Below are positions 8,284 through 60,264 of a stretch of 64,000 nt of DNA, one piece after another; the stretch's first letter is position 1; every line of letters begins with the position of its first letter. Source of the stretch: a virus (lineage: Duplodnaviria > Caudoviricetes). The stretch covers positions 1 to 64,000 of the IMG/VR virus record IMGVR_UViG_3300035208_005226; one strand, 5' to 3'. The notes below the pieces were generated by a model, which worked only from the letters and a program-made list of their open reading frames with translations, was not told where the DNA came from and did not search any database. The position numbers were made by a program, and so were the translations under genes.

Positions 8284-8511
8284 TTAATTTCCATAATCCT
8301 TAAAATTAGAAAGAACAAAATCTATGTCGTCCGCGGTAATTCTTTTTCCGTTCTTTTTATCGACTATTTTTTCTGCGTCTTGTACCAGGTGTTCAACATA
8401 AGAGGTTGCCAACTTGGCAAGATGTGTTGCAGTTTCCATACCAATAAGTTTCCCGCATGCATTTTTTCCTATGCGTCTTGCAGTATATGCTGGAAATATA
8501 TTATCTACCAT
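8284..8511 (-). CDS. Archaeal histone-fold protein
   Basis: 75 aa that align by eye and without gaps to HMf-type histones (P..RI.K.A...LAK...A.K....K.I.A.DI.....FK). Confidence 0.75.
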   Translation of the reverse strand: MVDNIFPAYTARRIGKNACGKLIGMETATHLAKLATSYVEHLVQDAEKIVDKKNGKRITADDIDFVLSNFKDYGN

Positions 8512-22135: not shown

Positions 22136-23661
22136 TTGGTTCACCTTGGGATTTAATTGGTTCTGGGGTTTTATGGATAAAGTTGCCTTCCGAGTCAAAC
22201 ATTTCAGGATGTGTTTTTTTAAGCCATAATTCAGATCTTTTCCTGTGGATCTCTGAATATTCTATCCAGTGTTTTTTATGGAGTGGTGGTATGATAAACG
22301 GCAGAGTTAGGGATCCCGGGTGTGCTTTGTCTACGCTAAATATCCAGGATAATTCCGAGTTGGCGTCATTAAATTCTGGGTTTCCCATGGCTCTGTTTAT
22401 CATAAGAAATGCTGCATTTAGGAATACCAGGTCCCCCCTGGTAATCCGTATTGTTTTTACCACGTCTTTTAGCGTTGATCTTGGATCGACTGGTGTGTCT
22501 CTTGCAGGTTTAATCATGTTGTCGCCTCATGAGTTTATCTGAGAATTGTTTGAATCTGTTTAGCAATCTTACTGTTATATTTCCTTCAACACAGTTTAAC
22601 ATATTACGCAGACATTCTTCACATATGCGGGGATATTCGCGGTGATCGATTCTATACTCGTCCATATCCCAGAATGATGTAGTGTGGACGACTCTTGGCT
22701 GTATGTTTATTGAGATGTCCACGTAATGATATAGTTTGCGGCCACATGCATTACAATATATGGGATCATCTGGAATTTCCTTGATTTTACTCAAGTCGAT
22801 TACAGATGCCATGCACAGGTTACCAAATGATTTTTCCCCCATGTTTTAGTCCTCATAGTATAGTCGAACAAAGTTTAATGTGGTGTTGCCGGGGTGTTCT
22901 CCTTCCTTTATCCACAGTCGATACTTTGGCCTCCCGTAATATTGGATGTGTTGTTTTAGTAGTCGCTGAACCATTTTGGATATATAGTTCATTGAGTAGT
23001 CTTTTCCGTTCGATGCCTTCATCCAAGAGTTTATGCCTGTTCTTACGTAAAGGATTTCATTGCCTTTTTTCTTGATTACTATGTGTTTTACACTTGCAAC
23101 TTCGATTTGTTTTGTTAGTTTCATAAGAAATCACACCGGAATATTAGTTTTAGATTTGTTGATCGTAATGTCGGGTTTCCATTTATCATGCTATATTTTC
23201 CTCATTGGGTTAATTTGTATGTAATTTTTTGCCTTATTGTATCATTCTTCGAACTTTGTTGAGTGAGGACAATGTTCTGGGAATGGACATATCCCGGCTT
23301 TAATTTTTTCCTGGTCGTCTGTAGATAGTTCAGTGTCGTTCTGTAAGATGCATTCTGTTAATTCACATGCCATTTTTTCTCCGAATTGCTCATTTATGTC
23401 TGATATGATAGATCCTAATATGAGGTCATATGACTGTTTTATTAGGTTTGCTGTTTTTAATTTGTCTATACTATGGTTTATGTATGGAGATACGTCAACC
23501 ATCATGGCAAATGTGTCAAATTTACCAGTTTTTGTTCTATACCAGAATGCTGTCTCATATGAGAATGGCGCTGTCTGGATTATTGTGCTGAAGCTTGTGG
23601 ATGTCATAATAGATCATCAGATATGTGGATTTACTGATTTCATAGTGTTACCGCTTGCGAT

Positions 23662-23693
23662 TGGCGGGAATGGGGTTTGATCCCACTCCTGCC
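23662..23693 (-). ncRNA. tRNA minihelix-like hairpin (acceptor stem plus T-arm only)
   Basis: Minus strand GGCAGGA-GTGGG-ATCAAAC-CCCAT-TCCCGCC-A. Could also be an ordinary hairpin. Confidence 0.35.
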
Positions 23694-23888
23694 TATTGTA
23701 TCTCCCTGGAGAAGAAAGAAATGAAAAAACATCGGACCTATGTTGTCCCTACATAGTTTAGCCTCCGTGCCCAGAGTAAAGATTATGTGGGACTGAACCC
23801 ATCATAACCTCCCACATATTTTCTACACCCAGTGATTTTCTGCTCTGGAATTTTTGTTCCGTCATTGCAGGAGTCAATTGAAAATATG

Positions 23889-24128
23889 TTATACGTTGAA
23901 TATTGCAATGTCATCTGCAATATCTGCTGATTTCTTTAGTTCTGCTCTTACTAGGGTTCTTGAGATGTTTTCAAGTTTGTTTATTTTCTGCTGAAGTTCT
24001 GTAATAGTTAGTTCCGTTTCTTTTATTCTGTCTTTGAGATATGACAGTTCATTCTTAAGATTTTCAATTTCTGGATCTGGTTTTATTTCAGATATATAAG
24101 ATGTTAATTGTGGTAACTTTTTGCTCAT
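23889..24128 (-). CDS. Coiled-coil hypothetical protein
   Basis: Heptad pattern IENLKNELSYLKDRIKETELTITELQQKINKLE. Confidence 0.6.
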   Translation of the reverse strand: MSKKLPQLTSYISEIKPDPEIENLKNELSYLKDRIKETELTITELQQKINKLENISRTLVRAELKKSADIADDIAIFNV

Positions 24129-24190
24129 TGTGGTTCCTCGGTTAGAATTCTGTTTATTATCTTATTTATAGTATTGGTTTCGTTAAGATA

Positions 24191-24316
24191 TGTCGATTGT
24201 AGGATTTGAACCTACTTCTGTGGCTTGAGACCACCGTCTTTACCAATCTAATAAAATACAAATGATAGATCTATATTTCCCACGGGCATGATTTTATTAG
24301 ACCAGACCAAATCGAC
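24191..24316 (-). tRNA. tRNA-like gene with 55-nt inverted-repeat-bounded insert in the D-loop and abnormal anticodon loop (central UCA)
   Basis: Acceptor GTCGATT/AATCGAC+A, D-stem GTCT/AGAC, arm GTGGT-CTCAA-GCCAC, T-arm GTAGG-TTCAAAT-CCTAC. The insert at 24247-24301 is closed by an 11-bp perfect stem. Confidence 0.65.
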
Positions 24317-24343
24317 AATGGGAATTGTTAACATTCTTTGAAA

Positions 24344-24399
24344 TGGCACCAGTGAGATTCGCACTCACGTAGCCCTACGGCGGCAGATTTTGAGTTTGT
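24344..24399 (-). pseudogene. 3' two-thirds of a tRNA-Leu(CAA)-like gene
   Basis: CTCAAAA loop, TCTGC, long variable arm GTAG-GG-CTAC, T-arm GTGAG-TGCGAAT-CTCAC, TGGTGCC-A. No recognisable D-arm. Confidence 0.6.
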
Positions 24400-24520
24400 T
24401 GTTCTCTGGTAACAGGCTGACCCGTCGTGGGTCGATTTAAGCTGACTTTACAGACACCCTCATATGAAGCAATTAGTCGCTACACGCTGCTGGTTCTTCA
24501 TAGTTTCTGATACCAGAGAT

Positions 24521-24576
24521 AACCAGAATCGGGGATCGAACCCGAACGGCGCTACATGTGCCAACCCACTTCCGGT
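24521..24576 (-). ncRNA. D-armless mini tRNA-like element (56 nt)
   Basis: ACCGGAA-GTGGGTT-GGCAC-ATGTA-GCGCC-GT-TCGGG-TTCGATC-CCCGA-TTCTGGT-T. Confidence 0.55.
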
Positions 24577-24600
24577 TTTTGTTATAACTCATCCTGATGA

Positions 24601-24648
24601 TCGGATGTAGAGGGTTTGAACCTCCATTGATCTCATATCAAACATCCG
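24601..24648 (-). ncRNA. D-armless mini tRNA-like element (48 nt)
   Basis: CGGATGT-TTGAT-ATGAG-ATCAA-T-GGAGG-TTCAAAC-CCTCT-ACATCCG-A. Confidence 0.55.
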
Positions 24649-24735
24649 ATAGGCTGATTGTTTTTATAGAGGTATCAACCTATGAATTTAACCTCTTTTT
24701 GATTCAAACGTCTTTAAATCTCATCCATTTCTGGA

Positions 24736-24820
24736 TAACCGAATAGTGGAATTTAACCACAATTCAATCAGACTTATGGAGGTCTTACCCCTGATTTGAC
24801 CCAGGGATAAGATTATTGTT
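24736..24820 (-). pseudogene. Degenerate tRNA-Met/Ile(CAT)-like element with extended D-arm hairpin
   Basis: AGAC-CTCCATAA-GTCT arm, GTGG-TTAAATT-CCAC T-arm, 11-bp hairpin TCTTATCCCTG/CAGGGGTAAGA. Acceptor stem pairs poorly. Confidence 0.35.
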
Positions 24821-25018: not shown

Positions 25019-25309
25019 TTAATAAGCTCTGCTTATTATGTAATTCGACTGAGCCACAACTTCTGATGTGTTTGTTGTCAGGTTGTTATAGATGGTCAGG
25101 GTTGCAGCAAGAGATGCCTGTTGTCCTGTAACATAAAGTACTGATTGGTTTGTGATGAACTCACCATAGTAAAGTGGTGTCGCCCCACCTGCAATAACCA
25201 GGGACTTTGATGTTACGTTTATGGTCTGATTGGTATCTGCCATTGCGATACTAGATAGCATCAGTAATGTTGCTATCAGAAGAACTATGTAAAGCGCTTT
25301 TGTCTCCAT
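25019..25309 (-). CDS. Small secreted protein with N-glycosylation sequons
   Basis: Signal peptide METKALYIVLLIATLLMLSSIAMA; sequons NQT, NVT, NQS, NLT, NTS. Confidence 0.65.
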   Translation of the reverse strand: METKALYIVLLIATLLMLSSIAMADTNQTINVTSKSLVIAGGATPLYYGEFITNQSVLYVTGQQASLAATLTIYNNLTTNTSEVVAQSNYIISRAY

Positions 25310-25872
25310 AATATGTGGTTGGTGTTCCCTGGTATTATTTTTGTTGGATGATAATACCACATTTTGGATATTTTGCTGGGATTTTTCCTGGCGGTCCGAG
25401 GTATATGTGATAAAATTTGCAGGAGTATCCGGATTTCTGTCCGTTTATCAGGTACCCGCAATGGTTGCATGTTGGTGGGGTTTCTATGTCATCTTTAAAT
25501 AGTTTTTTTGCCATGTTACCACTTCTTTTGTGGGCATGATATCATTTGGTACCGGAGGTCTCCGGATATGTTGCATTTATACATTCCGTTTTTTACTGAA
25601 CTTTCTGTGCAGTCTCTACATGAGTTTATTTGTTTGAATTCGTTGTTGTTTCTGTCTGTCATATATCATTCCTCAATTTATGCTTAATTGTTTCCATAAT
25701 ATTAGCATCTCACGTTGTGATTCTCTGTCTAAATTTCCGATTTCATACATTATGGTTGTTAATTCTGGTGTAAAAAATATGCTGTGGACCTTTATCTGGT
25801 GGTATATCACACCGGAGAATGAGCGAGTTGTTAATTTAAGTGTCATATCATCACTATGTTATCCCAATATTG

Positions 25873-32239: not shown

Positions 32240-32409
32240 ATGATTACCTCAGGTCGTGGAATGGATTAAATCATCTATTTCTTTTTTCCTAGCAGCATAT
32301 CTATCCATAGCCACAGGACTCCCTGCACATATGAAATAGTGTATGCAGGATATGTTACGGCATTTTCCATCATGAATATATGATGAACATGGCTCATACA
32401 TATGCTAAT

Positions 32410-34070
32410 GATTGCGTTCTGTTGTATTTAATGCTGTGGTTTTCGGTAGGAGATGACGGATTTGGTGAATTGAATGGTGAATTATGAAATGCGGTGGGTG
32501 ATAAGTTTTGGGGCAATTTTGAGGTTATTGTGAGATGAGTTGATGCGCTGTTTAAATATGGTTAGGGAATTGTGGCAAGTGGCTTGCCATTAGGTATTTA
32601 ATTGTTTTGAATGGTGTTATATATGTATTAGGTTCAATCCTTACAACAACACTGATAAAATAGTAATAAGATTTGGTATAATTAATTCTCTTTTCAACTC
32701 AAAAATGATAATGTAATGATGTTCTGTATAATTTTTTATTTGGTTTTTACCTTATTGGGTTAATTGTCATGATAGATCATGTGGGATATGATTGGGGGAT
32801 AGTTTGGGCTTTGTTTCCGGTTAATGTTTTTTGGTGGGATATACTGGGTTAATTTTTTGATTGCGGCTTAATTATGCCTGATGTATTATATGGTAACACT
32901 GCAATATAAGTAAAATGAAGGAATCGAAAAAAGGGTTATTGGCAAAAGGAGAGCATACCTTTATCCGATTGCGCCTCATTACTGCCAGGGATTCAAAATC
33001 GTTAGCCAAAACGTTAATATCAGTTTCCTTCTATTCTATCCTGACCGATAGGTTTATGTTGTGGTAATTTTGTCCGGAAATGAGGGTTAAGTGGGCGGCG
33101 AAAACACAAATATAACATGTAGTGGTACAAAAGTTGAGATTTAGTTTAAAAAATATGAAAAAAAGTTTAACACTAATTTTTTTTTAGTGTGATTTTGTTA
33201 TACTTTTGAATCGGGGTTCAATTTGGCTTTAATATTAATACTTTTATTTAAATATGGTTTATTTAATGATTTATGGAGCGCACACGCATCGTGATGAAGC
33301 CGGATATCGATTTATCTACGTTGGTTTTGTAATATAGTTTGTGATGGATAAAATAGGCGCGAGTCTGGCGTGGTGTTGCGCGTGTGGAAAATGGTTGGAT
33401 AGATGCTAACTCAATGTTTTTTGAGTTAAGTTAAGTTTTGTTTTCGCTTATTTGATACCGCACTTTTTTGAGAAAATTTCAATTTTTGTAGTATTTATAT
33501 GTTTGGGATGATTTCGGAAAATGTAGAATCGTGATAGATTTGTGCTACTAATTCAATTTTATATTCTACTGATGATTTAAATCTGGATTGGTGAAATAAG
33601 TGAGATACGGATGCAACTAGTTGCAACTGGCAGAATGGGCTTGGATTGAAATAAGGACAGAATGGGCGTATTTTCCAGTGGAAATAGTGGGAGTGTGACG
33701 TTAATTATAGGTCGGAATGATGAATAAGCAGTGTATATGCCGTTTCTTGACTTGTCCGGACTGGTTGACAACTATTTTGGGGCTGATTTGGGCTTGGTTT
33801 TTATTTTTGATTTAAAGCCGCGCTAATGTAAAACATGGCTGGATTGGTTTAACTTATAAAGCATGGCTATTGCTGGGGTAGATTGAAGAATGCGGCTTTA
33901 GCGCGTTAGCTATCGCTATAATAATTGCGCAAACTGGTTTTTGATGAATCAGGTGGTGTTAAGTATATATACTTAACAAAATTGCAGTAACACTTATACC
34001 AATTGGTATTAGTGTAGTGTGTTAATAATTTGTGTATTTTTTTTACTGTCGTATTATTTGATTAAAAAAT
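32410..34070. other. Long AT-rich, essentially non-coding region (candidate origin/terminus)
   Basis: No credible long ORF. Contains a 20-bp palindrome GTTAAGTATATATACTTAAC near 33958-33977, hairpin ACACTAA-TTTTTT-TTAGTGT near 33170-33190, and strong G-over-C skew. Confidence 0.55.
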
Positions 34071-41070: not shown

Positions 41071-42615
41071 TTGACAAAATCCAAAAAAGAGTTTAATGAG
41101 TTTAAGATAAAGCCCGGGGAGACTTTAGACGGGAAAGATCTGATCCGGTTTAAGTTGGATTTGATTAAGGGGAAATCAGATCCGGTTTGGGCGGTCCAAA
41201 ATATTTTGGGATTTGGAGATCTGTTCCCCTGGCAGGAAGAATACCTGAGATTGTTTTACCGGAATATTTATGATGCCAGTTTAATGCCGATAAGAGATGC
41301 ATATCTATCAGCGGGCCAGCGTAGTGGAAAAACTATGTGGGCTGCAATGATTGGGTCATATGACTTTTTTAACGTGGTGACTATTCCAGAACCACAAAAG
41401 TTCTTCGGGGTTAAAAATTCACAGAAGCTTTTTGCCACCTGCATGAGTACCAGCGGGAAGCTTGCGGAGGATGGAATTTATGCGCACATGCTAAATGCCA
41501 TTGAAGCAAGCGAATGGATGAATCAGTGGTTTGACATAAGATCTGTGACCTCTCCTATACCCCAAATCAGTGTTGATGATAAACAAGTGTATGCCCAGGT
41601 ATTAGGTTCCTGGATGAATACAGCAGTTGGCAGGACCAACTTCTGCGTATTGCTGGACGAAATAGATTATTTTGAGGAATCTACTTCTAAACGGTCTGGA
41701 ATGGAGGTATATTCCAGGATGACAAAATCCAGGGACACCTTAAGAGAATGGGGGCATCTGGTTGCAATTTCGTCTCCAAAGTCTATATCCGGTCCAATTT
41801 TGTCATTGGTAAGAGTAGCACAAAAACGTATTGAGGAATTTGGCATAAATGGAACCGACACAATTGGATTTAATAAGCCCGTATGGGAACTAAATCCAGA
41901 TCCGTTCTTTTCATTCCCGGAATTATGTAAGCGATATGCCCATGATATGATTGCGATGTGGAGAGACTTTGGATGCAAACCCGAAATGGCAGGTGGCATG
42001 CAGTTTCCTGAAGGCATATTCATGGATGAGACCCTGACTAACATATTAAAGGAAAAGGTCCGTCCGAAGTTTCAATACCCCCATGTCATGTACATAGATC
42101 CGGCTGCAAGATCAGATAAATTTGGGATATCCGTTGGCTGTAGGGTGCCATTTAAAGGAATGGTGGTAGACGGCACAACATATTTTAAGAAGAAAACGGG
42201 CGACCCGTTTATCATGCCGTCTGATGTCTGGGACTTTATAAATGAAGCAATCCCAAGATGTAATGTCCGATACTTTTGCTTTGATACCTGGATGTTCACT
42301 GAAATCCTGGAGCGAGTCTGGAAAAAGCATGGAATTAAGCCAGAACAGCATTTCGTGACTAAATCCGATTATGATACCTGGAGGTCCTATCAAAGCCCTA
42401 ACGCACCACACCCGATGCGATTGTGCTACGATAAAGAACTAAAGGACGAAGCCGATCAGCTCATAGTTAAGGAAGGCAAACGCGGACATGTGGTAGATCA
42501 TGCCTGGAACCAGTATAAAGATCAGTCGGATACTGTGGCAGGCGTCTGCTGGTTCCTAACGAATTTTGAGGTCGAATCAACTGTAGTGCCGTATATCGGG
42601 CTTCAAATAATTTAA
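41071..42615 (+). CDS. terL: Terminase large subunit
   Basis: FPWQ, Walker A AGQRSGKT, Walker B VLLDEID, RNase H-like nuclease YIDPA...D and DQSDTVA. Confidence 0.9.
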   Translation: MTKSKKEFNEFKIKPGETLDGKDLIRFKLDLIKGKSDPVWAVQNILGFGDLFPWQEEYLRLFYRNIYDASLMPIRDAYLSAGQRSGKTMWAAMIGSYDFFNVVTIPEPQKFFGVKNSQKLFATCMSTSGKLAEDGIYAHMLNAIEASEWMNQWFDIRSVTSPIPQISVDDKQVYAQVLGSWMNTAVGRTNFCVLLDEIDYFEESTSKRSGMEVYSRMTKSRDTLREWGHLVAISSPKSISGPILSLVRVAQKRIEEFGINGTDTIGFNKPVWELNPDPFFSFPELCKRYAHDMIAMWRDFGCKPEMAGGMQFPEGIFMDETLTNILKEKVRPKFQYPHVMYIDPAARSDKFGISVGCRVPFKGMVVDGTTYFKKKTGDPFIMPSDVWDFINEAIPRCNVRYFCFDTWMFTEILERVWKKHGIKPEQHFVTKSDYDTWRSYQSPNAPHPMRLCYDKELKDEADQLIVKEGKRGHVVDHAWNQYKDQSDTVAGVCWFLTNFEVESTVVPYIGLQII

Positions 42616-50271: not shown

Positions 50272-53200
50272 ATGGTGGATCCTAAAAAAAATATCAATGA
50301 TAATGTAAGAGTTAAGATCTTGCTTGACGCCGCAAAGAAAGGCGATGAGAATCTTGAGCACATTAGAACGCGATATAAGGATGCCATAAAGGAGTATGGG
50401 GCCGATGAAGACATCATACTTGTTAATCCTAAGCTGGTGAGTGATCGCAAAGAGCTTAATGACATGATGCAACATGTCATGCTGGATAAAACTTTTGCTG
50501 TGGATACCGAGGTAAATCCTAGGGCCGGAAAACCCGGGACTATTCAAATTGCATCTAGATCAGGTGTACATACTATTGCGGTTAATGCATTTAGAGAAAA
50601 CGAAGCGGATATGACATATCTTAGAAATAAGATAGGGTCGTTGTTAAACCGGGATGACGTGCATTCATATTACCATAATAGAATGTTTGATATGGACTTT
50701 CTCACCAGGGATGGGTTTAATCTGGCATTGACAAATTCAGGGGGGGAAGTTACAGCACATGATACAGTTGCATTGGCATCCAGACTTGGGAAGGCAAACT
50801 TGCTTGCTAATCCAGAAATGGGAAATTCTCTGGCATCATTTGTACTGAGATCTTTGGGAAAATATCTGCCTAAGAAGTTGTCTGGGTCTGGATTTGGATT
50901 TAACTATAATGTTGAGACATCCAAAACCAAAGATTTTGATAAGTGGTTTCTTAGGTATGGTGCTGGAGATGCACTAGCACTGTATGAAGTGGTATCTAAG
51001 TATTATGGAGAGCACAATGATCTTAAGAACCTGAAGAATATTGGAGCATCCAAGGATCAGATTGATTTTATAAATAAGATTGATGAGATAGAGCATGCAA
51101 AGAGATCAATGTTTAGGCCACCGCCTAGTGTTCAGGATTTCATGGAAGGACGGAATATTATAGCAACCAGGGTTAAAAAGGGAAATGATGGGAAGTTATA
51201 TGTTGAAAGTTATTTGTCACCGTCTGATGAATCCCAAAATGCAGTGATGAATTACCTAAGCGACAATAATATTTTAGATATTAAAAAAAAGCACGAAACA
51301 GGAATATTGGAAAAGGCAGCAGCAGTAGGAGTAAAACTAAAAAAAGGAGAAATTGCAGAGGAAGTAAATCTAAAAGCAGAAAGAGAAATAGCAAGTTATC
51401 TGCATACAAACCACGGAATAGACATTTATAAAGCAGTTGCAGATGCATTATCCGGAACTGCAAAGACCGATGTAAAATCCGGGATTAATCCAATTGCAAG
51501 GATGTATGCAAAGGGTGTAGCCGGAAGACTTGGGATGTTTAGATCCAACCGGGTGTATGTATCTGATGCATATCGAAACAAACCTGGGCAGGGCGGATCA
51601 TATGCTAAATATGCCAGTGCATACAGCAAGGACAACAAGATTGGAATTGGATATATTCCGGAAATAAGAAGCGGGGATTTTTCAATTGTAAAGGCATTCA
51701 GACAGATGTATGAAGCATCTCCCGAATACCTGATGAAATCTGTGGGGCACTTTGTTAAAGGGGATATAAACAAGGGAAATGTAGAATCTGCAACATCTGA
51801 CATATTTAATAGGGTAAAGAGTCTGCCTACCGATATAAACGAGGTAAAGAATTATTTTGGTGCATTGGGAATTTCACCTGATGTTATTGATGCAAACCCG
51901 GAGATGTGGATTAGGGATTATCATAGACATGGCCTTGTGGGAACATGGCTTGGACTTAGTAATGTGGCAAAAGGATTGACTGGAAAGAAAAGTATAGAAC
52001 GAAATGTGGTTGGTGCAATTAAACAGGTTGGGTTTGATCCTACAACCGGAGATCCTATTTATGCAAGGAAGTTACAGGAATCGAAGTCTGAAATATCGGA
52101 GTCCGGATTAAACTCGTTGCTTAATGGAGTATATGAATCGTTTGCCGGGATAAAAATAGCAAAACATAGTGTTCCAGGATTTACTCCCGGAAAGTCTGCT
52201 GCTGCATTTGGATCGTTGCTTGGTAGTGGAAGAGCTGTTGAAATTATAACAAAGATGGGATTACCGGAAAGTGTGGCTGCCATACCAGGAAAGTTTAGAT
52301 TCAGACAGCAATTGATGTCATCTGCTGTTAATTATGGTGCGGCATATGAGAACATGGACGAGCGGATGCAATCCGTAAATGCAATCAACACACCCGAAAT
52401 GAATGAGTTATATGGGGAAACAGAGCTGCTTAACAAGATGCCTATACGATCCAGGTTTAAAGAAGGAGATGTTGATGAATCACATAGAGAACGGTTGAGA
52501 TCATTGGGATTTGAACCTGAAAAGATTGAAGAACTGGTTGCAAATGGCGGAGAAATATTAAGAGAGGCACTGACATCCCCGGTATTGTATGGAAAAGGAA
52601 ACGAATGGTGGAAACAGTCCAGAATTATTGTTACAGATGATGTAAAGCAGAAGTTTACTGACTTGTGGGAAAATATTGAGAATTATTCGCCTGAAGTTCA
52701 GAATAAGATACGATCTGCTCTTGCTATAGGAACAAAAGGGCCGTTTAGAGATGCAAACGGACTGGTGCAGGTTGGAGATCTTGATACCAGGATGGTGGGA
52801 CATAATAAGAATTATGAGTTATCCACAGGGTTCTATCAGGGAACTGTAGGTCAGGAAATAACATCTATGCTGACTGATAAGCAGTTTAGACATGAGGCAT
52901 TTATTGAAAATATACCAAAGATGATTCCAGAAATTTATGCAAGCGGCGATAAGGGAATTACACCCGGTGGAAGATCGCAATATATAAAAGACTCCTATGA
53001 TTTTTTTGCTCAGATAGGACTGCTTAAGAGCATTCCGGATAAAAAAGTGGGAATCAAAGCAGCAAAAGGCATCAAAAACACCATATTAACTGAAATGAGT
53101 TATAGGAAGGCATATGGGAAAAATGTACTTAGTGATGCTGAAGTTCTGAAGATGTCTCGTTTGTTTAATTTAGTGATGTCAAAAAGAGTTGCCAGAGACG

Positions 53201-56200
53201 AAACTATAATGAGGGCAGATCTAGACAAAAGTCTTGATTATATAGGGAATATTAAGAACGAGGTTGGATATAACCCCAATGTATTGCATGGATCTTATAG
53301 AAATTATAATGAAGAAACAGGAATGAGTACCATTGTACCATATCAGACATTATCTACACTCCCGACGATGAGTGAAAAGGAAGCCAGGAAACTGGAAGGA
53401 AGTTATATAAACAGAGTTAAGGAACTGTCTGAAGTAATAAGGCCGAAAGAATTGTTGCAAGTAGAAAAGTTTATTTCTGGAATAGAAAAGGGATATGCCC
53501 CAAATGCAACTGAGTCTGTTAATGCAGCATCAATATATGACACGGTGAAGAAGCTGGGATTGAATGAAGACGATGCATATTCGTTGGTAAATAATGCCAC
53601 AACTGAGGCTTATGATATAGGACAGGCGTTTTCTCCGGAATCAAAAATTCCTGCTACCTTGGCAGTCAGCAGAACGTTATTTCCACCATTAAAAAAGGCA
53701 ATTGCCTCTGTTATTCCAGATGTTGCACCGGTCATTTCAGATACAGGAGTTGGAAGATCTCATTCTCCGCTACTGAACGCAATATTTGATATATCGTCTG
53801 AGACTGGAGGACGAACTCCATTAATGTCTCACCCCATTGGTATAACCGATCCGGATGTTTTAATGTCTATGCTGGAGTCTGGTGCAATAACGGATAAAGA
53901 ATATGCAAAGGCTGTTGTGTTGTCTGCGAAACCAATTACAGATCAGAAAGGAACTAGATGGGAAAAACATATTCCGAGGGCATTTGCAGATATTTCTAAA
54001 GTTGATTTCTCCAGTGGATTTATACGACCGCCTAATGTAGGAGATGAATATATTCAGACACGTGGATCTGGTCCATCTCGTTTATACTACAGTACATTCC
54101 GGGGAATGATGGGAGAAACCTTGTCTGTAATGGCTGAGAATGCAGCACGTAAGAAACAAGATTTGAGAAGGCTCGAGAGCGAACGGGTTTTAGATAAGCT
54201 TGCTGGATCTCATTCCATTCAGGTTGATTACTTGAAAGGACACAAGGTTGCTACCGGTGCAAATGCTGTGATGGAAGAAGGAAAGGTTGGAAATCTTGTT
54301 AAGACATATGAGACATATAACAAGGTTTCTGATGCTATAGGAGAGAGACACAGCGATATAATAAAGCCAGGATATGTTCCTAAGAAAACAATATCAAGAA
54401 ATCGCATACTTGGGGAATATTCTCCAGAAACAGCAAATGTTAGATATAATAGAGACATTGGACAGATAATTGGAAGCGTATCTGATTATGCTGGAATGGC
54501 TAAAGATGTTGGAGGATTTAAAGATAGCAAGGAGGCATTAAAGAAGGCTCCTGGAATCATATCAAAGTTTTTAAACATATGGGGTCCAAGGAAACCAGAC
54601 ACTTGGAAAAGCAGTGATGCCAGATTGTTTGCTCCTGGATATTATCCAGAAAATGATGTGTCTGATTTGGTTTCCATAGATTTTTGGATGAACAAAGAGT
54701 TGGAGCGGGTATGGAGTGGAAAGACTCCATTTAGTCTGATGCCGAAGGGAGAGAACGAAGATATAAAAGGGTCTGATATATTTGGACTGGACTTTACCAG
54801 GGAAACCACAACCGAGAGTTCAAAGGACTTTAAGAGAATAAGCAGAGATGTAATGGAGAAATCAATTCTCCAGTCCATTAAGGAATCTGATAACCCGGTT
54901 GAACTTATAAATCAAATGCATAGATCTATTGAAGGATTCAATCAATGGAAGAAAGAAGGGGTTGAGGGAACTTATCCATATATTCCAGATTACTTGGCAT
55001 TGTCTAAATCACCAGGTATGAGTTCTGGATTGGGAACTTCGCTATTTGACTGGCTTACAAAAGGCAATACAAAGGAGTTATCTGCTGCATTTTCTGAGAA
55101 TGAGAAAGGATATGGTACGTTGTCCAGTATGCTTGAGGAGGTTGCGGAGATACAAGAAAGCGGGATGTTAAATGGAAAAAGGATAGGGAAAGACGCATCC
55201 GATTATGATGTGGTATCTCACGTAATAAATAAATACAGGACTGGAGAAACCGGAGAAATAAGTCTTGAATATCTTGATGCGGTTAACTTGGTTTCTGGAT
55301 ATAGACCATTAAGACCTGAATATGGAATACAACATGTTAATCCATATTATAAGGGAATACCAAGGAAGTTGTCTGAATATAATCCACGCGATTATGGACT
55401 TGGGATGAAAAGCGGGAGATCATCTGTGCTTACTGATCTGTACTCAGATGTCATTGATTACAGTAAGGGTAGAAGTATTGGATTTAGACTGCCTAAATTT
55501 GGAAAAGGAACTCCAAATATAAATGGAATTACATTATCTGGTAAGGCATTTGGATTATCGGTGGTAGGCGATGGCGGACCTGAAATATCAATCTCAGATG
55601 ATGGGACCATTAGAACCCACAATACGGAAGAAGTGGTTAATTTTAGATCTCCTACTACTGTAATACCAAAGAATAGACTTCCACACTTTGCTTTTGGAAC
55701 CCCAGACTTCAACAGAAATGACATAATACGGTCTATTGCGGAATCTATTGAAAATAGTTTTGAAGAATATAATGCTCTTGGATCAGATTTATTATCAACA
55801 AAGGGAGTCACAAGGACCACCACACCGTCTGAAATCCAGTCGATAAAAAGTGTGGTGGCGGAACATATGAATTCCGGATTGGCTAAATCCGGGAAGCATC
55901 CTGAAAGGGCTGGGTTGTTTAGGACGGAAGGAAGTGGAATAATCAGTGGTATTGGAAGATTTATGGACTTTGGTAATACTGATTATACGCTTAGTGGTCC
56001 TGGTAATGTAAGAAAAGATATTGGGCGGCATGATATCATGGGACAAGATATATCTGGTAGAATCCAGAGAATGTCGGATGTCACAAATATCACAGATAAT
56101 AGATTTATACGAAATAAAAACCGGGGGATTGCAGATGTATATGAAGATGCCACCATTCCTGGAATTCAAAAAGTAGTAACATCATTGCCTCAGCCTGGTG

Positions 56201-59200
56201 GAGTCGCACAATCCGGAGCAAGATTGTCTGCAACAGAAATTAATAGTCTTAAAGATATGCTGGGGGATTTAAATGCGTCGATGAGAGATCTTGGTAGCGA
56301 TACTGATTATGGTGGATTCATTAAGAGTCTTGAAACATCAATTGGGGCAAACAGGGGTATTGATGTAACAAAAGGTGTGGCAGAACAGTTTAAGCTACTT
56401 AGTGATCAGCTTAGGATTATTGTTCCGGAATTGAAGTCGTTTTCTGATGTTGCAAAGATAGAGAATATTGCAAAGGCAAGAAAGGTATCTCCTGAATATC
56501 AGGAAGAAATCATGAAAAAGGGGTACTTTAAGGAAGGCCCTATAAGCAGCATCAGATACATGATGGCAAAGAGGAGAGATCCCGGATTGACTCCGGAAGA
56601 ATGGAATGCAGATAGGTTTGAAGCATCATTTTCAGAAAGCAGAGATCAGAGATTAGCTAGGTGGTTAAAGAAGAGGGCTTTGAAGGGGACCGAAGAAACT
56701 GAGACATTTGCATTCCAAGCCAATTATGCATTGGAGTCTCCAGCAGCTAAGTCGGAAATGACAAGGGTGCAGTCAGAGTTCTCTGCATTTGTATCTGAAT
56801 TGTCTAAGATTGACAAAAATATTAAAATAAATACTCAGACGGGGACAAAATTCTCACCGGGCGAAAAGTCAAAACAAGTTGAGAGCGTCTTTGGGGAACA
56901 ACTTGGGATGAATGTAGAGGTGAGTAAAGAAGCTCTGAGATTGAAGTTTGGCAAAGATTATAGGAAGATATTACAGGGTATGTTTGGGCCGTCTTTAATT
57001 GATCAGCCAGGATATATTTCAAATGCAAACCTGGATATTGTGGAAGGCAGGAGAACCACAAGACCTACAGAAGAATCATCTGGATATTTATCTGCATCTT
57101 CCACTCTTCAGGGATATGGCAGAAAAATGACGGCATTGAGCATGGGTGCAATGGGTACCTACTTTTCAATAACTGGTATCTATAGTGTGATATCTCAAGG
57201 CGTTCGTATGGTAACCGATTCACTGAAGGATCTTAGTTCTCAGATGAAATCAATTGCCATAATGGATAACTTCAGCAATGGGCTACTTAGATCTAAGGAT
57301 ATAATGGCTACGATGGGAATAACCCAGCAGGATTTCATTAATGGGTGGAAAGGCATAACATCTATCCAGGCATCGTTCCAGGTATTTTTGGGATCTATTG
57401 CTGCTAAGATGATGCAGGTAGGAGAAGACGGAACTTCAGCGTTCAAAACCATTGCTGATACACTGATGAAGGCATTTACAGATAAAAGAAGCATAGATGA
57501 ATTGGTGAGTTCTGTTAAGACACTGGTTGTGGCGGGTGCAGAATTGCTACCGATGTTTATTGGGTTTGCTAAAACTCTTGCTAATCTGGTTGCTGGAATT
57601 GCAAAAAGTCCGTTTGCTCCACTTATTACTGGATTTACGCTTATTGCGTTTGTAATGCAACCGGTGCTTACACTGATTGCTGTTACACTGGAAGGATTTG
57701 CATCATTGCTTACCCTTATGGCATTCATGGGTCCGGCAGCATCAACCGGAGCACTTGGAATGACACAGTTTGCAGCTGGTACCACAAGTGCAGCTGGTGG
57801 TGTAATGGTTCTTAATGGGGCATTGGGAACTACACTTGCAATGTTATCAACTGTAGTTGTGGTTGTAGGAGCTGCTGTTGCTGCTTGGCAGTTACTAGGA
57901 ATGGCTATAAATTTTGCATCAAATAAAGAGGTTGTTCCTACCCCGGTTGGATTAATTGGGGGTGCACTTGGATTCAATAAGGGTGGATTGGTGGAGTGTT
58001 TTGCAGAGGGAGGAGAAAAAGGAACCGACATCGTTCCCTCAATGCTTACACCCGGGGAGTTTGTAGTTAGGAGAGATTCTGCTAAGAAGTTTGGATATGA
58101 CAGGCTTGACAAAATTAATAAAATGGCAGATGGAGGTGTTGTAGGCGGACTGATGCCATCATCCTCTCCTGTTATGGATTCAGATAACCGGATGAATATA
58201 AACAATAAGTTTGGGTTGTTGACAAATGTGAGTGAGGCAGGAGCCAATGCAAATAAAAATACCGCAAAGACGTTATCTGATGCAAGTGGAGGGAAATATC
58301 TTAATGTTAAGTTGTATGGAGAAGAAGGGCAGATCGGCGGTAAAGGCGATGTAGAAACTGAAGGTGGATATCTAGGAAATCTAATGGATACTCTAGGAAA
58401 TGCAGCAGATGAATTTGCGAAGGGGCTATCTGATACATTTACCCCAAGTGGACTCAAGAATGTAGTAACAACTGGAGCAGCTGGAGCAACGTTGTCTACT
58501 CCATTTAATGAACTTACTAAAAAAGTAAAGGAATGGTGGGATAAAATAGAATGGCCTGATGTCGGAAAATGGATTAAAGAAAGATTTAAGTTTTTGGATG
58601 ATACAGATCTTGGAGAAAAATTTAGGGAATTTAAGGAAAGGTTAATTGAGTTGACTACCGGAAAGGAGAGAACCGGTAGAACTGAGAATGTAGACATCGA
58701 TAGGAATGAAAAGATAAAAGGAAGGAAGACACCTGGGGAAGAAAGTCTCGAAAGTAAAACTAATAAAAGGGTTGTAGACTGGTTTAGAGGGGATAAAGGA
58801 TTAGAAGGCTGGGAAAAGGTAGATACAGGAACCGAAAAACAACCTAGCAGACCAAAGATGACCTGGTCATATGAGAATGAATATGGGAATGTAGAGGCAG
58901 AAAAACCAATTTATGAACCAGGAAGAAATGCATTACCAAATCAAATATGGGAGGTAACTCCAGAAGGAGGTATAGGAAAAGGAGTTGAAACACCAGAGAG
59001 CGGGTTTAAAACCGCAAAGCCACCTGTTGGAGTTTCAACTACCCAAGAGATTATTGGTGGTGCTAAAGGAGGTGGTATTCTTGGTGGTATATTAGCTGCT
59101 GTGGATGAGATACTTGTAAAGGGAAAATCTCCGGTAGAGGCAGCACCTACGGTTGGAGTGAGTGCAGCAGCAGGAGCGGGACTTGGAGCTGCAACAGCTG

Positions 59201-60264
59201 CATTTCCTATTTTGGGTCTTCCAGTAGCTATGCTTTCTCATGAGTGGATGGCAAACTTCGGCGCAAATGTAGCAGAAAAAGCAACTGGAGGAACATGGAT
59301 AGAAGAGAAAAAAGACAAACAGGGCAATGTTATTACTCCTGGATATATGGAGGGAGGAAATAAAGAACTTGGTGCGGCATCTGGCATTGCAGGTGCCACA
59401 ATAAATGATGTCACTGGTGGAGCAGTGACCGGTGGTGCAATAGGATCTGTGGTTCCAGTTGTTGGAACTGGCATTGGAGCACTTATAGGTGCAATTGCTG
59501 GCATAGTTAGTGGCGGGGTTCTTGATATTCAGGATATAAATAAACAGGTTTCGTCTGGCAAAACCAATATTGAGGGCAATTATGGTGTAATTGGATCGGT
59601 TTCAAAGTATGCAACTAATTTATCCATGAATCCAACTGCCGCAAATGGTGAAGCAAACCCGATGTATTATGATGCAACAAAGGCACAAAATATGCTGAGT
59701 GGAACGCTTGATTCCATAAAAACAAGTATATTGAGCGGGCTTGGAGATGCATCCGCCACACTTGGTACTATATGGGGTTCAGTTTATAATATGGCAATAT
59801 CAGGATTTGGAGATGCAGCATCGGTGCTTGGAGGACTGTGGACCTGGATATCAGATGCGGTTAAGTCGGCTATTGGTATTGGAGGCAGTGTAGTAAGTAC
59901 GGTGTCAAATGCTGCAACTGGTATAGCAAGCGGTGTAACTGGAACTGCAAGTGGGATTGTAAAGGCAATTACTGGTGCTGCTGATGGAGGACTGATAACT
60001 TCAACGGGATTGATTAATGCTCATGCTGGAGAAGTTATAGGTCCAATTGATAAAGTATCGAGTATTTTATCTGGTGCATCAAGCAGCAGCAATACAAATT
60101 CTACATCGTCTGTTTCATCATCTGGTGGTAATAATATCTCAATAACAATTCCAATAACTATAGGAAGTGCATCATCGTCCACAGTTAATGATATCAAGAG
60201 CGAACTTGAATATTGGTTACCACGGCTGCTCAAACAGTATGACATAAAAGGAATTAGCTTATGA
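50272..60264 (+). CDS. Giant tape measure protein with N-terminal DEDDy 3'-5' exonuclease domain
   Basis: Canonical TMP position. The C-terminal third is Ala/Gly-rich with hydrophobic helices and GTDIVPSMLTPGEFVV. The N-terminus has AVDTE / HNRMFD / YGAGD. Confidence 0.85.
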   Translation: MVDPKKNINDNVRVKILLDAAKKGDENLEHIRTRYKDAIKEYGADEDIILVNPKLVSDRKELNDMMQHVMLDKTFAVDTEVNPRAGKPGTIQIASRSGVHTIAVNAFRENEADMTYLRNKIGSLLNRDDVHSYYHNRMFDMDFLTRDGFNLALTNSGGEVTAHDTVALASRLGKANLLANPEMGNSLASFVLRSLGKYLPKKLSGSGFGFNYNVETSKTKDFDKWFLRYGAGDALALYEVVSKYYGEHNDLKNLKNIGASKDQIDFINKIDEIEHAKRSMFRPPPSVQDFMEGRNIIATRVKKGNDGKLYVESYLSPSDESQNAVMNYLSDNNILDIKKKHETGILEKAAAVGVKLKKGEIAEEVNLKAEREIASYLHTNHGIDIYKAVADALSGTAKTDVKSGINPIARMYAKGVAGRLGMFRSNRVYVSDAYRNKPGQGGSYAKYASAYSKDNKIGIGYIPEIRSGDFSIVKAFRQMYEASPEYLMKSVGHFVKGDINKGNVESATSDIFNRVKSLPTDINEVKNYFGALGISPDVIDANPEMWIRDYHRHGLVGTWLGLSNVAKGLTGKKSIERNVVGAIKQVGFDPTTGDPIYARKLQESKSEISESGLNSLLNGVYESFAGIKIAKHSVPGFTPGKSAAAFGSLLGSGRAVEIITKMGLPESVAAIPGKFRFRQQLMSSAVNYGAAYENMDERMQSVNAINTPEMNELYGETELLNKMPIRSRFKEGDVDESHRERLRSLGFEPEKIEELVANGGEILREALTSPVLYGKGNEWWKQSRIIVTDDVKQKFTDLWENIENYSPEVQNKIRSALAIGTKGPFRDANGLVQVGDLDTRMVGHNKNYELSTGFYQGTVGQEITSMLTDKQFRHEAFIENIPKMIPEIYASGDKGITPGGRSQYIKDSYDFFAQIGLLKSIPDKKVGIKAAKGIKNTILTEMSYRKAYGKNVLSDAEVLKMSRLFNLVMSKRVARDETIMRADLDKSLDYIGNIKNEVGYNPNVLHGSYRNYNEETGMSTIVPYQTLSTLPTMSEKEARKLEGSYINRVKELSEVIRPKELLQVEKFISGIEKGYAPNATESVNAASIYDTVKKLGLNEDDAYSLVNNATTEAYDIGQAFSPESKIPATLAVSRTLFPPLKKAIASVIPDVAPVISDTGVGRSHSPLLNAIFDISSETGGRTPLMSHPIGITDPDVLMSMLESGAITDKEYAKAVVLSAKPITDQKGTRWEKHIPRAFADISKVDFSSGFIRPPNVGDEYIQTRGSGPSRLYYSTFRGMMGETLSVMAENAARKKQDLRRLESERVLDKLAGSHSIQVDYLKGHKVATGANAVMEEGKVGNLVKTYETYNKVSDAIGERHSDIIKPGYVPKKTISRNRILGEYSPETANVRYNRDIGQIIGSVSDYAGMAKDVGGFKDSKEALKKAPGIISKFLNIWGPRKPDTWKSSDARLFAPGYYPENDVSDLVSIDFWMNKELERVWSGKTPFSLMPKGENEDIKGSDIFGLDFTRETTTESSKDFKRISRDVMEKSILQSIKESDNPVELINQMHRSIEGFNQWKKEGVEGTYPYIPDYLALSKSPGMSSGLGTSLFDWLTKGNTKELSAAFSENEKGYGTLSSMLEEVAEIQESGMLNGKRIGKDASDYDVVSHVINKYRTGETGEISLEYLDAVNLVSGYRPLRPEYGIQHVNPYYKGIPRKLSEYNPRDYGLGMKSGRSSVLTDLYSDVIDYSKGRSIGFRLPKFGKGTPNINGITLSGKAFGLSVVGDGGPEISISDDGTIRTHNTEEVVNFRSPTTVIPKNRLPHFAFGTPDFNRNDIIRSIAESIENSFEEYNALGSDLLSTKGVTRTTTPSEIQSIKSVVAEHMNSGLAKSGKHPERAGLFRTEGSGIISGIGRFMDFGNTDYTLSGPGNVRKDIGRHDIMGQDISGRIQRMSDVTNITDNRFIRNKNRGIADVYEDATIPGIQKVVTSLPQPGGVAQSGARLSATEINSLKDMLGDLNASMRDLGSDTDYGGFIKSLETSIGANRGIDVTKGVAEQFKLLSDQLRIIVPELKSFSDVAKIENIAKARKVSPEYQEEIMKKGYFKEGPISSIRYMMAKRRDPGLTPEEWNADRFEASFSESRDQRLARWLKKRALKGTEETETFAFQANYALESPAAKSEMTRVQSEFSAFVSELSKIDKNIKINTQTGTKFSPGEKSKQVESVFGEQLGMNVEVSKEALRLKFGKDYRKILQGMFGPSLIDQPGYISNANLDIVEGRRTTRPTEESSGYLSASSTLQGYGRKMTALSMGAMGTYFSITGIYSVISQGVRMVTDSLKDLSSQMKSIAIMDNFSNGLLRSKDIMATMGITQQDFINGWKGITSIQASFQVFLGSIAAKMMQVGEDGTSAFKTIADTLMKAFTDKRSIDELVSSVKTLVVAGAELLPMFIGFAKTLANLVAGIAKSPFAPLITGFTLIAFVMQPVLTLIAVTLEGFASLLTLMAFMGPAASTGALGMTQFAAGTTSAAGGVMVLNGALGTTLAMLSTVVVVVGAAVAAWQLLGMAINFASNKEVVPTPVGLIGGALGFNKGGLVECFAEGGEKGTDIVPSMLTPGEFVVRRDSAKKFGYDRLDKINKMADGGVVGGLMPSSSPVMDSDNRMNINNKFGLLTNVSEAGANANKNTAKTLSDASGGKYLNVKLYGEEGQIGGKGDVETEGGYLGNLMDTLGNAADEFAKGLSDTFTPSGLKNVVTTGAAGATLSTPFNELTKKVKEWWDKIEWPDVGKWIKERFKFLDDTDLGEKFREFKERLIELTTGKERTGRTENVDIDRNEKIKGRKTPGEESLESKTNKRVVDWFRGDKGLEGWEKVDTGTEKQPSRPKMTWSYENEYGNVEAEKPIYEPGRNALPNQIWEVTPEGGIGKGVETPESGFKTAKPPVGVSTTQEIIGGAKGGGILGGILAAVDEILVKGKSPVEAAPTVGVSAAAGAGLGAATAAFPILGLPVAMLSHEWMANFGANVAEKATGGTWIEEKKDKQGNVITPGYMEGGNKELGAASGIAGATINDVTGGAVTGGAIGSVVPVVGTGIGALIGAIAGIVSGGVLDIQDINKQVSSGKTNIEGNYGVIGSVSKYATNLSMNPTAANGEANPMYYDATKAQNMLSGTLDSIKTSILSGLGDASATLGTIWGSVYNMAISGFGDAASVLGGLWTWISDAVKSAIGIGGSVVSTVSNAATGIASGVTGTASGIVKAITGAADGGLITSTGLINAHAGEVIGPIDKVSSILSGASSSSNTNSTSSVSSSGGNNISITIPITIGSASSSTVNDIKSELEYWLPRLLKQYDIKGISL

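Follow-up and report, generated by a model that had tools for sequence, protein, structure and literature searches.

A 1.2-kb non-coding stretch on the minus strand of the viral contig IMGVR_UViG_3300035208_005226 raises the question of whether a virus may keep the top halves of tRNAs as working parts, or whether such halves are only what remains recognisable of a tRNA cluster in decay. RNase P, tRNase Z, the CCA-adding enzyme and several synthetases all read the acceptor/T-arm (top) half of a transfer RNA (tRNA), and there is a long-standing argument that this half is self-sufficient and the older of the two. To our knowledge, natural RNAs consisting of the top half only are few, comprising t-elements, mascRNA and some phage RNAs. 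The window analysed here is the first 64 kb of the 76,314-bp contig (38.8% G+C), and all positions are numbered within it. We found that the stretch contains at least eight tRNA-derived units that have kept the acceptor/T-arm top half and lack a working anticodon half. We put at about 0.5 the probability that a former tRNA cluster has here been pared down to substrates for RNase P and tRNase Z that resemble t-elements.

Composition of the array

A scan for 5-bp T-stems with a T-loop, followed by 7 nt pairing with an upstream 7-mer, together with a reading of the minus strand, located eight units at 23662-24812, in all of which an acceptor stem of 7 bp stacks on a T-arm. Four are minihelices (A, B, I and H), two are mini-tRNAs (C, 48 nt, and D, 56 nt), one is eroded (F, 70 nt) and one is of 126 nt (G). 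The first-pass annotation, which was made from the sequence, had claimed at least six tRNA-derived units on this strand within about 1.2 kb, and the count of eight bears this out. The units, and the elements in and between them, are as follows, with z values for folding energy relative to shuffles.

24812-24782, minus strand: unit A, a 12-bp minihelix with a 6-nt T-like loop (GUCAAA) and discriminator C at 24782 (-17.5 kcal/mol, z -4.6)
24768-24737, minus strand: unit B, with a 7-bp acceptor stem, a U.U mismatch (49-65), a 4-bp T-stem, loop UUAAAUU and discriminator U (z -3.5)
24700-24660, minus strand: debris of B, its T-loop (GGUUAAAUUC) recurring on a stem of 6 bp whose loop has 17 nt, without an acceptor stem (direct repeat)
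24648-24601, minus strand: unit C, a D-armless mini-tRNA of 48 nt with an acceptor stem of 7 Watson-Crick pairs and discriminator A (Rfam tRNA, 19.3 bits)
24576-24521, minus strand: unit D, 56 nt, with a 7-bp acceptor stem including one G.U pair and discriminator U (T-arm scan)
24519-24403, minus strand: element E, a structured stretch of 117 nt with a perfect 9-bp closing stem (inverted repeat; -40.3 kcal/mol, z -3.6)
24413-24344, minus strand: unit F, 70 nt, eroded, with 6 of 7 acceptor pairs and the T-arm GUGAG/UGCGAAU/CUCAC, which has G55 (read from the sequence)
24316-24191, minus strand: unit G, 126 nt, tRNA(UCA)-like, with perfect 7-bp acceptor, D and 5-bp T stems and a D-loop split by a hairpin (z -3.1; Rfam, 21.7 bits)
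24301-24247, minus strand: the insert of G, a 55-nt hairpin in the D-loop with perfect 11-bp terminal inverted repeats and no bulge-helix-bulge junction (inverted repeat)
23809-23780, minus strand: unit I, a minihelix with a 7-bp acceptor stem, a bulged A, a 4-bp stem, a 6-nt loop (UUCAGU) and discriminator U (z -3.3)
23693-23662, minus strand: unit H, a minihelix in which a 7-bp acceptor stem (one A.C) continues directly into a T-stem of 5 bp, with loop AUCAAAC and discriminator A (-19.8 kcal/mol, z -5.5)
23640-23619, minus strand: debris of the 3' end of G, a 22-nt copy (77%) of the trailer and of the 3' strands of the T-stem and acceptor, lacking a partner to pair with (direct repeat)

In the four minihelices (29-32 nt), the acceptor stem lies directly on the T-stem with 0-1 nt between them, while C and D retain 16 and 24 nt, respectively, instead of 41. 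Unit H, with 11 of its 12 pairs formed and the lowest z of all, is the bare minihelix that had been claimed at 23662-23693. In unit C, the 5-bp arm has a loop of 5 nt (AUGAG), there is one linker base, and the T-arm is GGAGG/UUCAAAC/CCUCU; in unit D, which has the T-arm UCGGG/UUCGAUC/CCCGA, 24 nt replace the D and anticodon arms. The earlier description of these two as D-armless units of 48-56 nt therefore stands for their acceptor stems, T-arms and 5-nt loops, but the supposed 5-bp arm of D (loop AUGUA) holds an A.C mismatch. Unit F, which is as long as a tRNA, has an A-rich, unpaired middle in which a CUCAAAA loop is left without flanking stems, the D and anticodon stems having been lost. 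As for unit G, the anticodon loop may be read as 7 nt (UCUCAAG, with C33) or, if a U.G pair closes, as the 5 nt that had been reported, and G does possess a D-arm. When its 54-55-nt insert was removed in silico, default ARAGORN called a 74-nt tRNA with anticodon UCA and a normal D-arm.

In element E, the 5' strand of the closing stem is a tandem copy of the 3' acceptor strand and trailer of D, and the 3' strand shares bases with the 5' acceptor strand of F; because of this overlap, E and F are alternative folds. The closure of E may thus be a by-product of local duplication, which weakens the proposal of the first-pass annotation that 24403-24519 is a stem-closed RNA released as a product. The folding analysis that it had suggested gave a mixed outcome: A, B, E, G, H and I fold distinctively (z -3 to -5.5), C is marginal (z -2.3), and D and F are not distinctive. 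In the fold of the whole region, the local structures of A, B, C, E, G and H persist.

tRNA origin of the units and loss of decoding

Standard searches pass over the array. ARAGORN with default settings called no tRNA in the window and Rfam reported no family at its gathering score; at E<=10, Rfam gave two sub-threshold tRNA matches, at 24191-24259 (21.7 bits) and 24601-24648 (19.3 bits), against a cut-off of 29. No unit reaches the threshold for a canonical tRNA (Rfam RF00005; ARAGORN) with a full cloverleaf, and ARAGORN found no intact tRNA in the whole 76-kb contig. Relaxed and mitochondrial ARAGORN runs of the kind proposed at first pass (-ps80/70/60, -mt, -mtmam, -i) gave mainly noise, with just three calls matching units and the mitochondrial mode yielding noise. 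A BLAST search of the region against 50,697 phage records returned nothing beyond T-arm identities of 20-21 nt; over 20-21 nt, for example, the T-arm of G matches those of annotated phage tRNA-Pro and tRNA-Ser genes without a single difference.

The origin of the units is nevertheless evident from their loops, their clustering and their behaviour in chimeras. We defined T-arm-like hairpins as having 5 bp, G53:C61 and the loop NT[ACT][AG]ANN, and counted seven on both strands of the 76-kb contig, shuffles giving 4.8 +/- 1.9. Four of these are clustered in 23663-24625 on the minus strand, an interval for which the expectation is about 0.04, and in each of these four the next 7 nt pair with an upstream 7-mer. 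The full set of tRNA features (U54 U55 C56 R57 A58, G53:C61 and a 7-bp acceptor stem) is present in C, D and G, and there are one or two departures in B, F, H, A and I. In a transplant test, each top half was joined to the bottom half (positions 8-48) of three real tRNAs of coliphage N4 and submitted to default ARAGORN: all eight top halves passed, with all 24 chimeras called as tRNAs, versus 1 of 40 natural hairpins taken from other parts of the contig, 52 of 300 synthetic hairpins that had perfect stems and random loops, and 8 of 300 random top halves. The reverse transplant, in which windows of the array were placed into a good tRNA top half, was unspecific (50 start positions versus 20-71 in controls) and carries no information on whether bottom halves are intact. 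The units derive from tRNAs.

None of them can decode. A usable decoding half is found in none of the eight: the arm is missing from A, B, I and H, the loop is of 5 nt in C and D, no stem is left in F, and G has C33 and the insert. When the closing pair of the C and D loops is opened, position 33 is A in both, so that neither offers the 7-nt anticodon loop of armless mitochondrial tRNAs. The asymmetry that had been noticed at first pass, namely acceptor and T-arms kept and decoding parts broken, is real, with intact top halves in 8 of 8 units and intact decoding halves in 0 of 8.

Evidence for the proposed retention as processing substrates

The units have the properties by which t-elements are defined, i.e., a tRNA-like fold with at least an acceptor stem and T-arm and no decoding role, and several features suggest that these properties have been kept by selection. 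Only 2 of 60 acceptor and T-stem pairs are mismatched in B, C, D, G and H, and F keeps 11 of 12 top-half pairs though its middle stems are gone. The top halves have 50% G+C versus 37.7% in the remaining non-coding part of the array. In addition, ATC occurs within 4 nt after the acceptor in five of the eight units (p ~0.001), and three or four minihelices, unrelated in sequence, each lack positions 8-48 almost exactly.

The arrangement of neighbouring genes bears on what such substrates might do. The features concerned are the following.

24128-23889, minus strand: gene for a 79-aa coiled-coil protein, inside the array, with a GAGG ribosome site (open reading frame and protein analysis)
23729-23724, minus strand: six-T run between I and H, resembling an archaeal terminator (sequence)
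25002-24997, minus strand: six-T run, 17 nt past the stop of the upstream 113-aa gene (sequence)

Unit G ends 62 nt upstream of the 79-aa gene and unit I begins 79 nt downstream of it, while H ends 54 nt ahead of the ATG (23607) of a 121-aa gene. This placement of G, I and H fits a role in cutting transcripts. The two six-T runs may act as terminators. The units themselves have no promoter-like boxes of their own, including boxes resembling TTTATATA (see below), and scans for bacterial promoters and terminators were at chance level.

The array lies on the strand of the early genes and would be co-transcribed with them. Host RNase P could then cut on the 5' side of each acceptor stem and tRNase Z after each discriminator base, the top half being all that these enzymes need, as in the t-elements of Haloferax and plant mitochondria; this would free the message of the 79-aa gene between G and I and set the 5' end of the message starting after H. 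Small, stable top-half RNAs would be released and would receive CCA, and top halves would be retained because the virus benefits from the processing or from the small RNAs as such. In its most specific form, this proposal is that a virus of archaea maintains, as a dedicated array, top halves as small as bare 31-nt minihelices, which recruit RNase P, tRNase Z and the CCA-adding enzyme to cut an early transcript and make CCA-ended mini-RNAs; for this form we judge the odds to fall somewhat short of even. The idea of processing marks was already present in the first-pass annotation, and it gains from the archaeal t-element precedent (PMC4326828) and from the fitting gene layout, but its example of a stem-closed RNA is weakened.

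Decay, decoys and cryptic tRNAs as alternatives

Neutral decay is a serious alternative, to which we assign a substantial minority of the probability. According to it, 8-13 tRNA genes that once worked and are now unneeded are rotting by deletions, hairpin insertion, local duplications and substitutions, and the top halves appear intact merely because the decay is recent and units without a top half are unrecognisable. The lack of any intact tRNA in the contig agrees with this, as does the graded series from G with its one insert, through the eroded F and the truncated C and D, to the minihelices. Sequence-level relatives were found in none of the 50,697 phage records, and haloarchaeal virus HSTV-2, the single haloarchaeal tailed virus checked, has one normal tRNA-Gln and zero top-half units. 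A number of observations that weigh against a processing role belong here as well. The units are confined to one cluster and are absent from the other gene junctions of the contig, which is odd for general punctuation; A-B and C-D-E-F stand back to back, though one element per junction would suffice; and the six-T run between I and H might end transcription ahead of H. The spacers hold partial copies and unpaired, partnerless fragments (23619-23640, 24660-24700 and the tandem copy of the 3' end of D), as would be expected of a region undergoing decay and duplication. The minimum-energy fold of D is no better than shuffles (z -0.3) and F alone folds weakly (z -1.3). The T-loops depart from consensus in having 6 nt in A and I, A54 in H, A56 in B and G55 in F, and plain 12-bp hairpins with 7-nt loops number 43 on the contig versus about 30 in shuffles; since such hairpins are common by chance, they prove little by themselves, and it is the loops and the clustering that carry the signal. 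Moreover, the argument from asymmetry is biased, because a unit without a top half can no longer be recognised. Decay, on the other hand, needs three to four deletions that removed positions 8-48 almost to the nucleotide, and the minihelices that they left (A, B, I and H) share no sequence relationship. It would also have to leave eight top halves and no bottom half, to remove the middle stems of F by substitution and yet spare its top-half pairs, and to maintain 50% G+C in the top halves within a 38% genome, and 1.2 kb of junk is costly for a packaged viral genome.

Two further readings give the units a function other than as processing substrates. As decoys or sponges, CCA-ended top halves would sequester a host factor, or a defence enzyme whose target is the acceptor end of tRNA, sparing the host tRNA pool during infection; candidates for such a factor are a synthetase, the CCA-adding enzyme and toxins by which the 3' end is cut, extended or modified. 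A titrating RNA would be expected to occur, as the units do, in many tandem copies that agree in shape and differ in sequence, and non-decoding tRNA mimics are conserved in tRNA clusters of other phages (N4 family). We nevertheless consider this improbable, as no partner enzyme or anti-defence gene was recognised beside the array and the reading requires the same RNase P/tRNase Z processing plus a further target. The particular version put forward at first pass, with decoys against tRNA-targeting nucleases, is unlikely for anticodon nucleases, because no unit offers an anticodon loop. The other reading takes the pieces as cryptic archaeal-type tRNAs, i.e., as exons of intron-containing, split or permuted genes joined by host endonuclease and ligase; G minus its 55-nt insert would then be a UGA-reading tRNA. 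In favour of this are the default-threshold ARAGORN call of insert-free G as tRNA(UCA), the probably archaeal host and the ability of archaea to splice introns at non-canonical tRNA positions (PMC4033280). However, bulge-helix-bulge motifs are at background (18 versus 12 expected, or 6 versus 4.4 for stricter/longer helices), and none lies at the insert of G, which is a continuous 11-bp helix with bulges at neither junction; we rejected intron, split and permuted genes on these grounds and regard the reading as very improbable. Furthermore, G would retain C33 rather than U33, the minihelices are shorter than a set of tRNA halves, and both acceptor strands are already present in each unit. Since the long genes are open in the standard code, a suppressor is not needed.

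Two other candidates were discarded. A remnant of attP was rejected in view of the lack of an integrase among the scanned proteins and the presence of both acceptor strands in each unit. The insert of G was not accepted as a mobile hairpin, being unique in the window.

The virus, its relatives and its probable host

The contig was assembled with a set of 252 contigs, the bulk of which have about 70% G+C; with its 38.8% G+C, it is therefore a foreign element binned with a bacterium. The genes for the large terminase (41071-42615) and a tape measure protein of 3,330 aa (50272-60264) are present, the plus strand carrying the structural genes and the minus strand small early genes; judged by its sequence, the contig is that of a tailed virus. 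The same 70% G+C assembly contains 20 low-GC contigs (including C200, C137, C226 and C242) with a total of 1.08 Mb. One of them, C200 (340 kb, 40.5% G+C), has 65 ARAGORN tRNA genes and looks like a jumbo phage or other foreign genome that was binned in.

The host is probably an archaeon, for which there are several pointers, none of them proof. A histone-fold protein of 75 aa (8284-8511, minus strand) has a weak sequence match to HMfA (E 0.13), its closest Atlas clusters are archaeal or viral, and its structure neighbours are archaeal histones (TM 0.80-0.84). The virus also encodes TrmB, ERCC4, family B polymerase (PolB) and Cas4 domains, and among the 50,697 phage records the top matches of PolB are haloarchaeal tailed viruses with a similar genome layout. 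In addition, boxes resembling TTTATATA are located 22-46 nt ahead of several minus-strand start codons (upstream of 17424, 19698 and 26352), an arrangement that fits archaeal TATA promoters with short leaders. A search of genome contigs with dCTP deaminase gave weak bacterial matches and no archaeal link.

Similarity searches revealed terminase relatives, 53-60% identical, on metagenome contigs of the Joint Genome Institute (JGI), which are collinear with 34-49 kb of the window. No tRNA-like units occur in these collinear parts, which end about 10 kb short of the array. No relatives were found in the same assembly or in the 20 genomes of the family of the metagenome-assembled genome. Two of the related metagenome contigs have a large-terminase match interrupted by about 1 kb (contig positions 8702-8968 and 10001-11311); the split terminase is intein-bearing, as its 892-aa product carries intein and homing-endonuclease domains (PF14528 and PF14890), and the virus studied here is without this insert.

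The genes around the array have few relatives. Upstream of it, a 113-aa open reading frame (25019-25360, minus strand), of which M18 (25309) is the probable start, codes for a small protein whose N-terminal part includes a hydrophobic segment; the protein belongs to a small family seen in Logan assemblies only, one relative (71% identical) being encoded on a contig of 1.5 kb and another (42%) on a contig of 77,489 bp. No relatives of the 121-aa protein were found, and the best relatives of a flanking DUF7168 protein are at most 39% identical and lie on short contigs. Elsewhere in the window, a stretch of about 1.8 kb that is poor in open reading frames (32250-34070) has the strongest GC skew of the window (0.33), G/T-rich TTTGGGG-like motifs recurring about 1 kb apart, a 15-nt palindrome at 33990-34015 and no tandem repeats; it may be a replication origin or another RNA region.

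Significance and comparison with known systems

If the units are kept as working parts, they would constitute the first viral t-element array and a natural example of tRNA top halves being maintained alone once the decoding half has been discarded. Under selection, the series from a near-whole tRNA to a bare minihelix would probe the minimal needs of archaeal processing enzymes, show a route to transcript punctuation for archaeal viruses and add an archaeal case to the non-decoding tRNA mimics emerging in phage tRNA clusters. If they are products of decay, they carry a warning that tRNA pseudogenes can seem to have their top halves preserved, as such remnants alone stay recognisable.

RNase P is known to cleave hairpins consisting of acceptor stem, T-stem and T-loop alone (PMC11143913). 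The closest archaeal precedent is the t-element of Haloferax volcanii, a tRNA-like structure upstream of 5S rRNA (Holzle et al. 2008, 2012, as cited in PMC4326828); in vivo, RNase P and tRNase Z cleave the Haloferax t-elements, and two such elements suffice to release an RNA placed between them (PMC4326828). As described there, they resemble the present units in being archaeal, tRNA-like and non-decoding, in being recognised by RNase P/tRNase Z and in setting the end of a neighbour by the cuts. They are, however, single and cellular with cleavage established experimentally, whereas the units described here are viral, number at least eight in tandem, include several bare 12-bp minihelices and are known from sequence. 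In plant mitochondria, t-elements and acceptor-like stem-loops mark 5' and 3' ends of mRNAs and are cut by RNase P/RNase Z, the released element gaining C or CCA (Forner et al. 2007, PMC1920247). These elements, too, are degenerate and tRNA-derived and were found via a T-arm motif (GGTTCRANYCC), but they are single and scattered at gene ends of an organelle genome, forming neither a compact array nor part of a virus.

Shrunken tRNAs that have lost an arm are also found in mitochondria of nematodes and arachnids, in which D-armless or armless tRNAs of 42-60 nt have a short connector in place of the arm (PMC4033280). Unlike the units of the array, these have a 7-nt anticodon loop and decode, whereas the loops of C and D are of 5 nt and A, B, I and H have no arm. 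The tRNA-like parts of MALAT1 mascRNA and of the TMERs of murine herpesvirus 68 (MHV68) are entry points for RNase P or RNase Z that release a neighbouring RNA, and as such are comparable modules. They are nevertheless eukaryotic nuclear or herpesviral, form near-full cloverleaves, follow polymerase III logic and are unrelated to the array in sequence and setting.

Among viral RNAs, the nearest counterpart in architecture to C and D is a 66-nt armless RNA in the tRNA island of coliphage N4 (32869-32934), which consists of a 7-bp acceptor stem, one hairpin, a T-arm and ACCA. We found this RNA in 64 N4-like phages; in five diverged members, 98.8% of the pairs are kept and six pairs are compensatory, indicating that an acceptor + hairpin + T-arm architecture can be maintained by selection. 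Beside it, at 32952-33026, N4 has a second odd unit of 75 nt, with acceptor TTTTGGT/ACCAGAG and a T-arm containing TTCGAAT; D and anticodon arms are not recognisable in it, and it lacks CCA. Species 1 and 2 of phage T4 are long-known stable RNAs of a tRNA cluster that are not known to have an assigned role. Mimics of this type would be expected among the working tRNA genes of a cluster, whereas the present contig has no working tRNA. Both the 66-nt RNA and the units described here are non-decoding RNAs of a viral tRNA cluster, but the former sits among four real tRNAs, encodes ACCA and belongs to a bacterial virus, while the latter include bare minihelices, encode no CCA and share no sequence similarity with it. 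Taken together, the array belongs with the t-elements and the non-decoding tRNA mimics, retention as processing substrates being in our judgement an even bet and decay the lesser, though still considerable, possibility.

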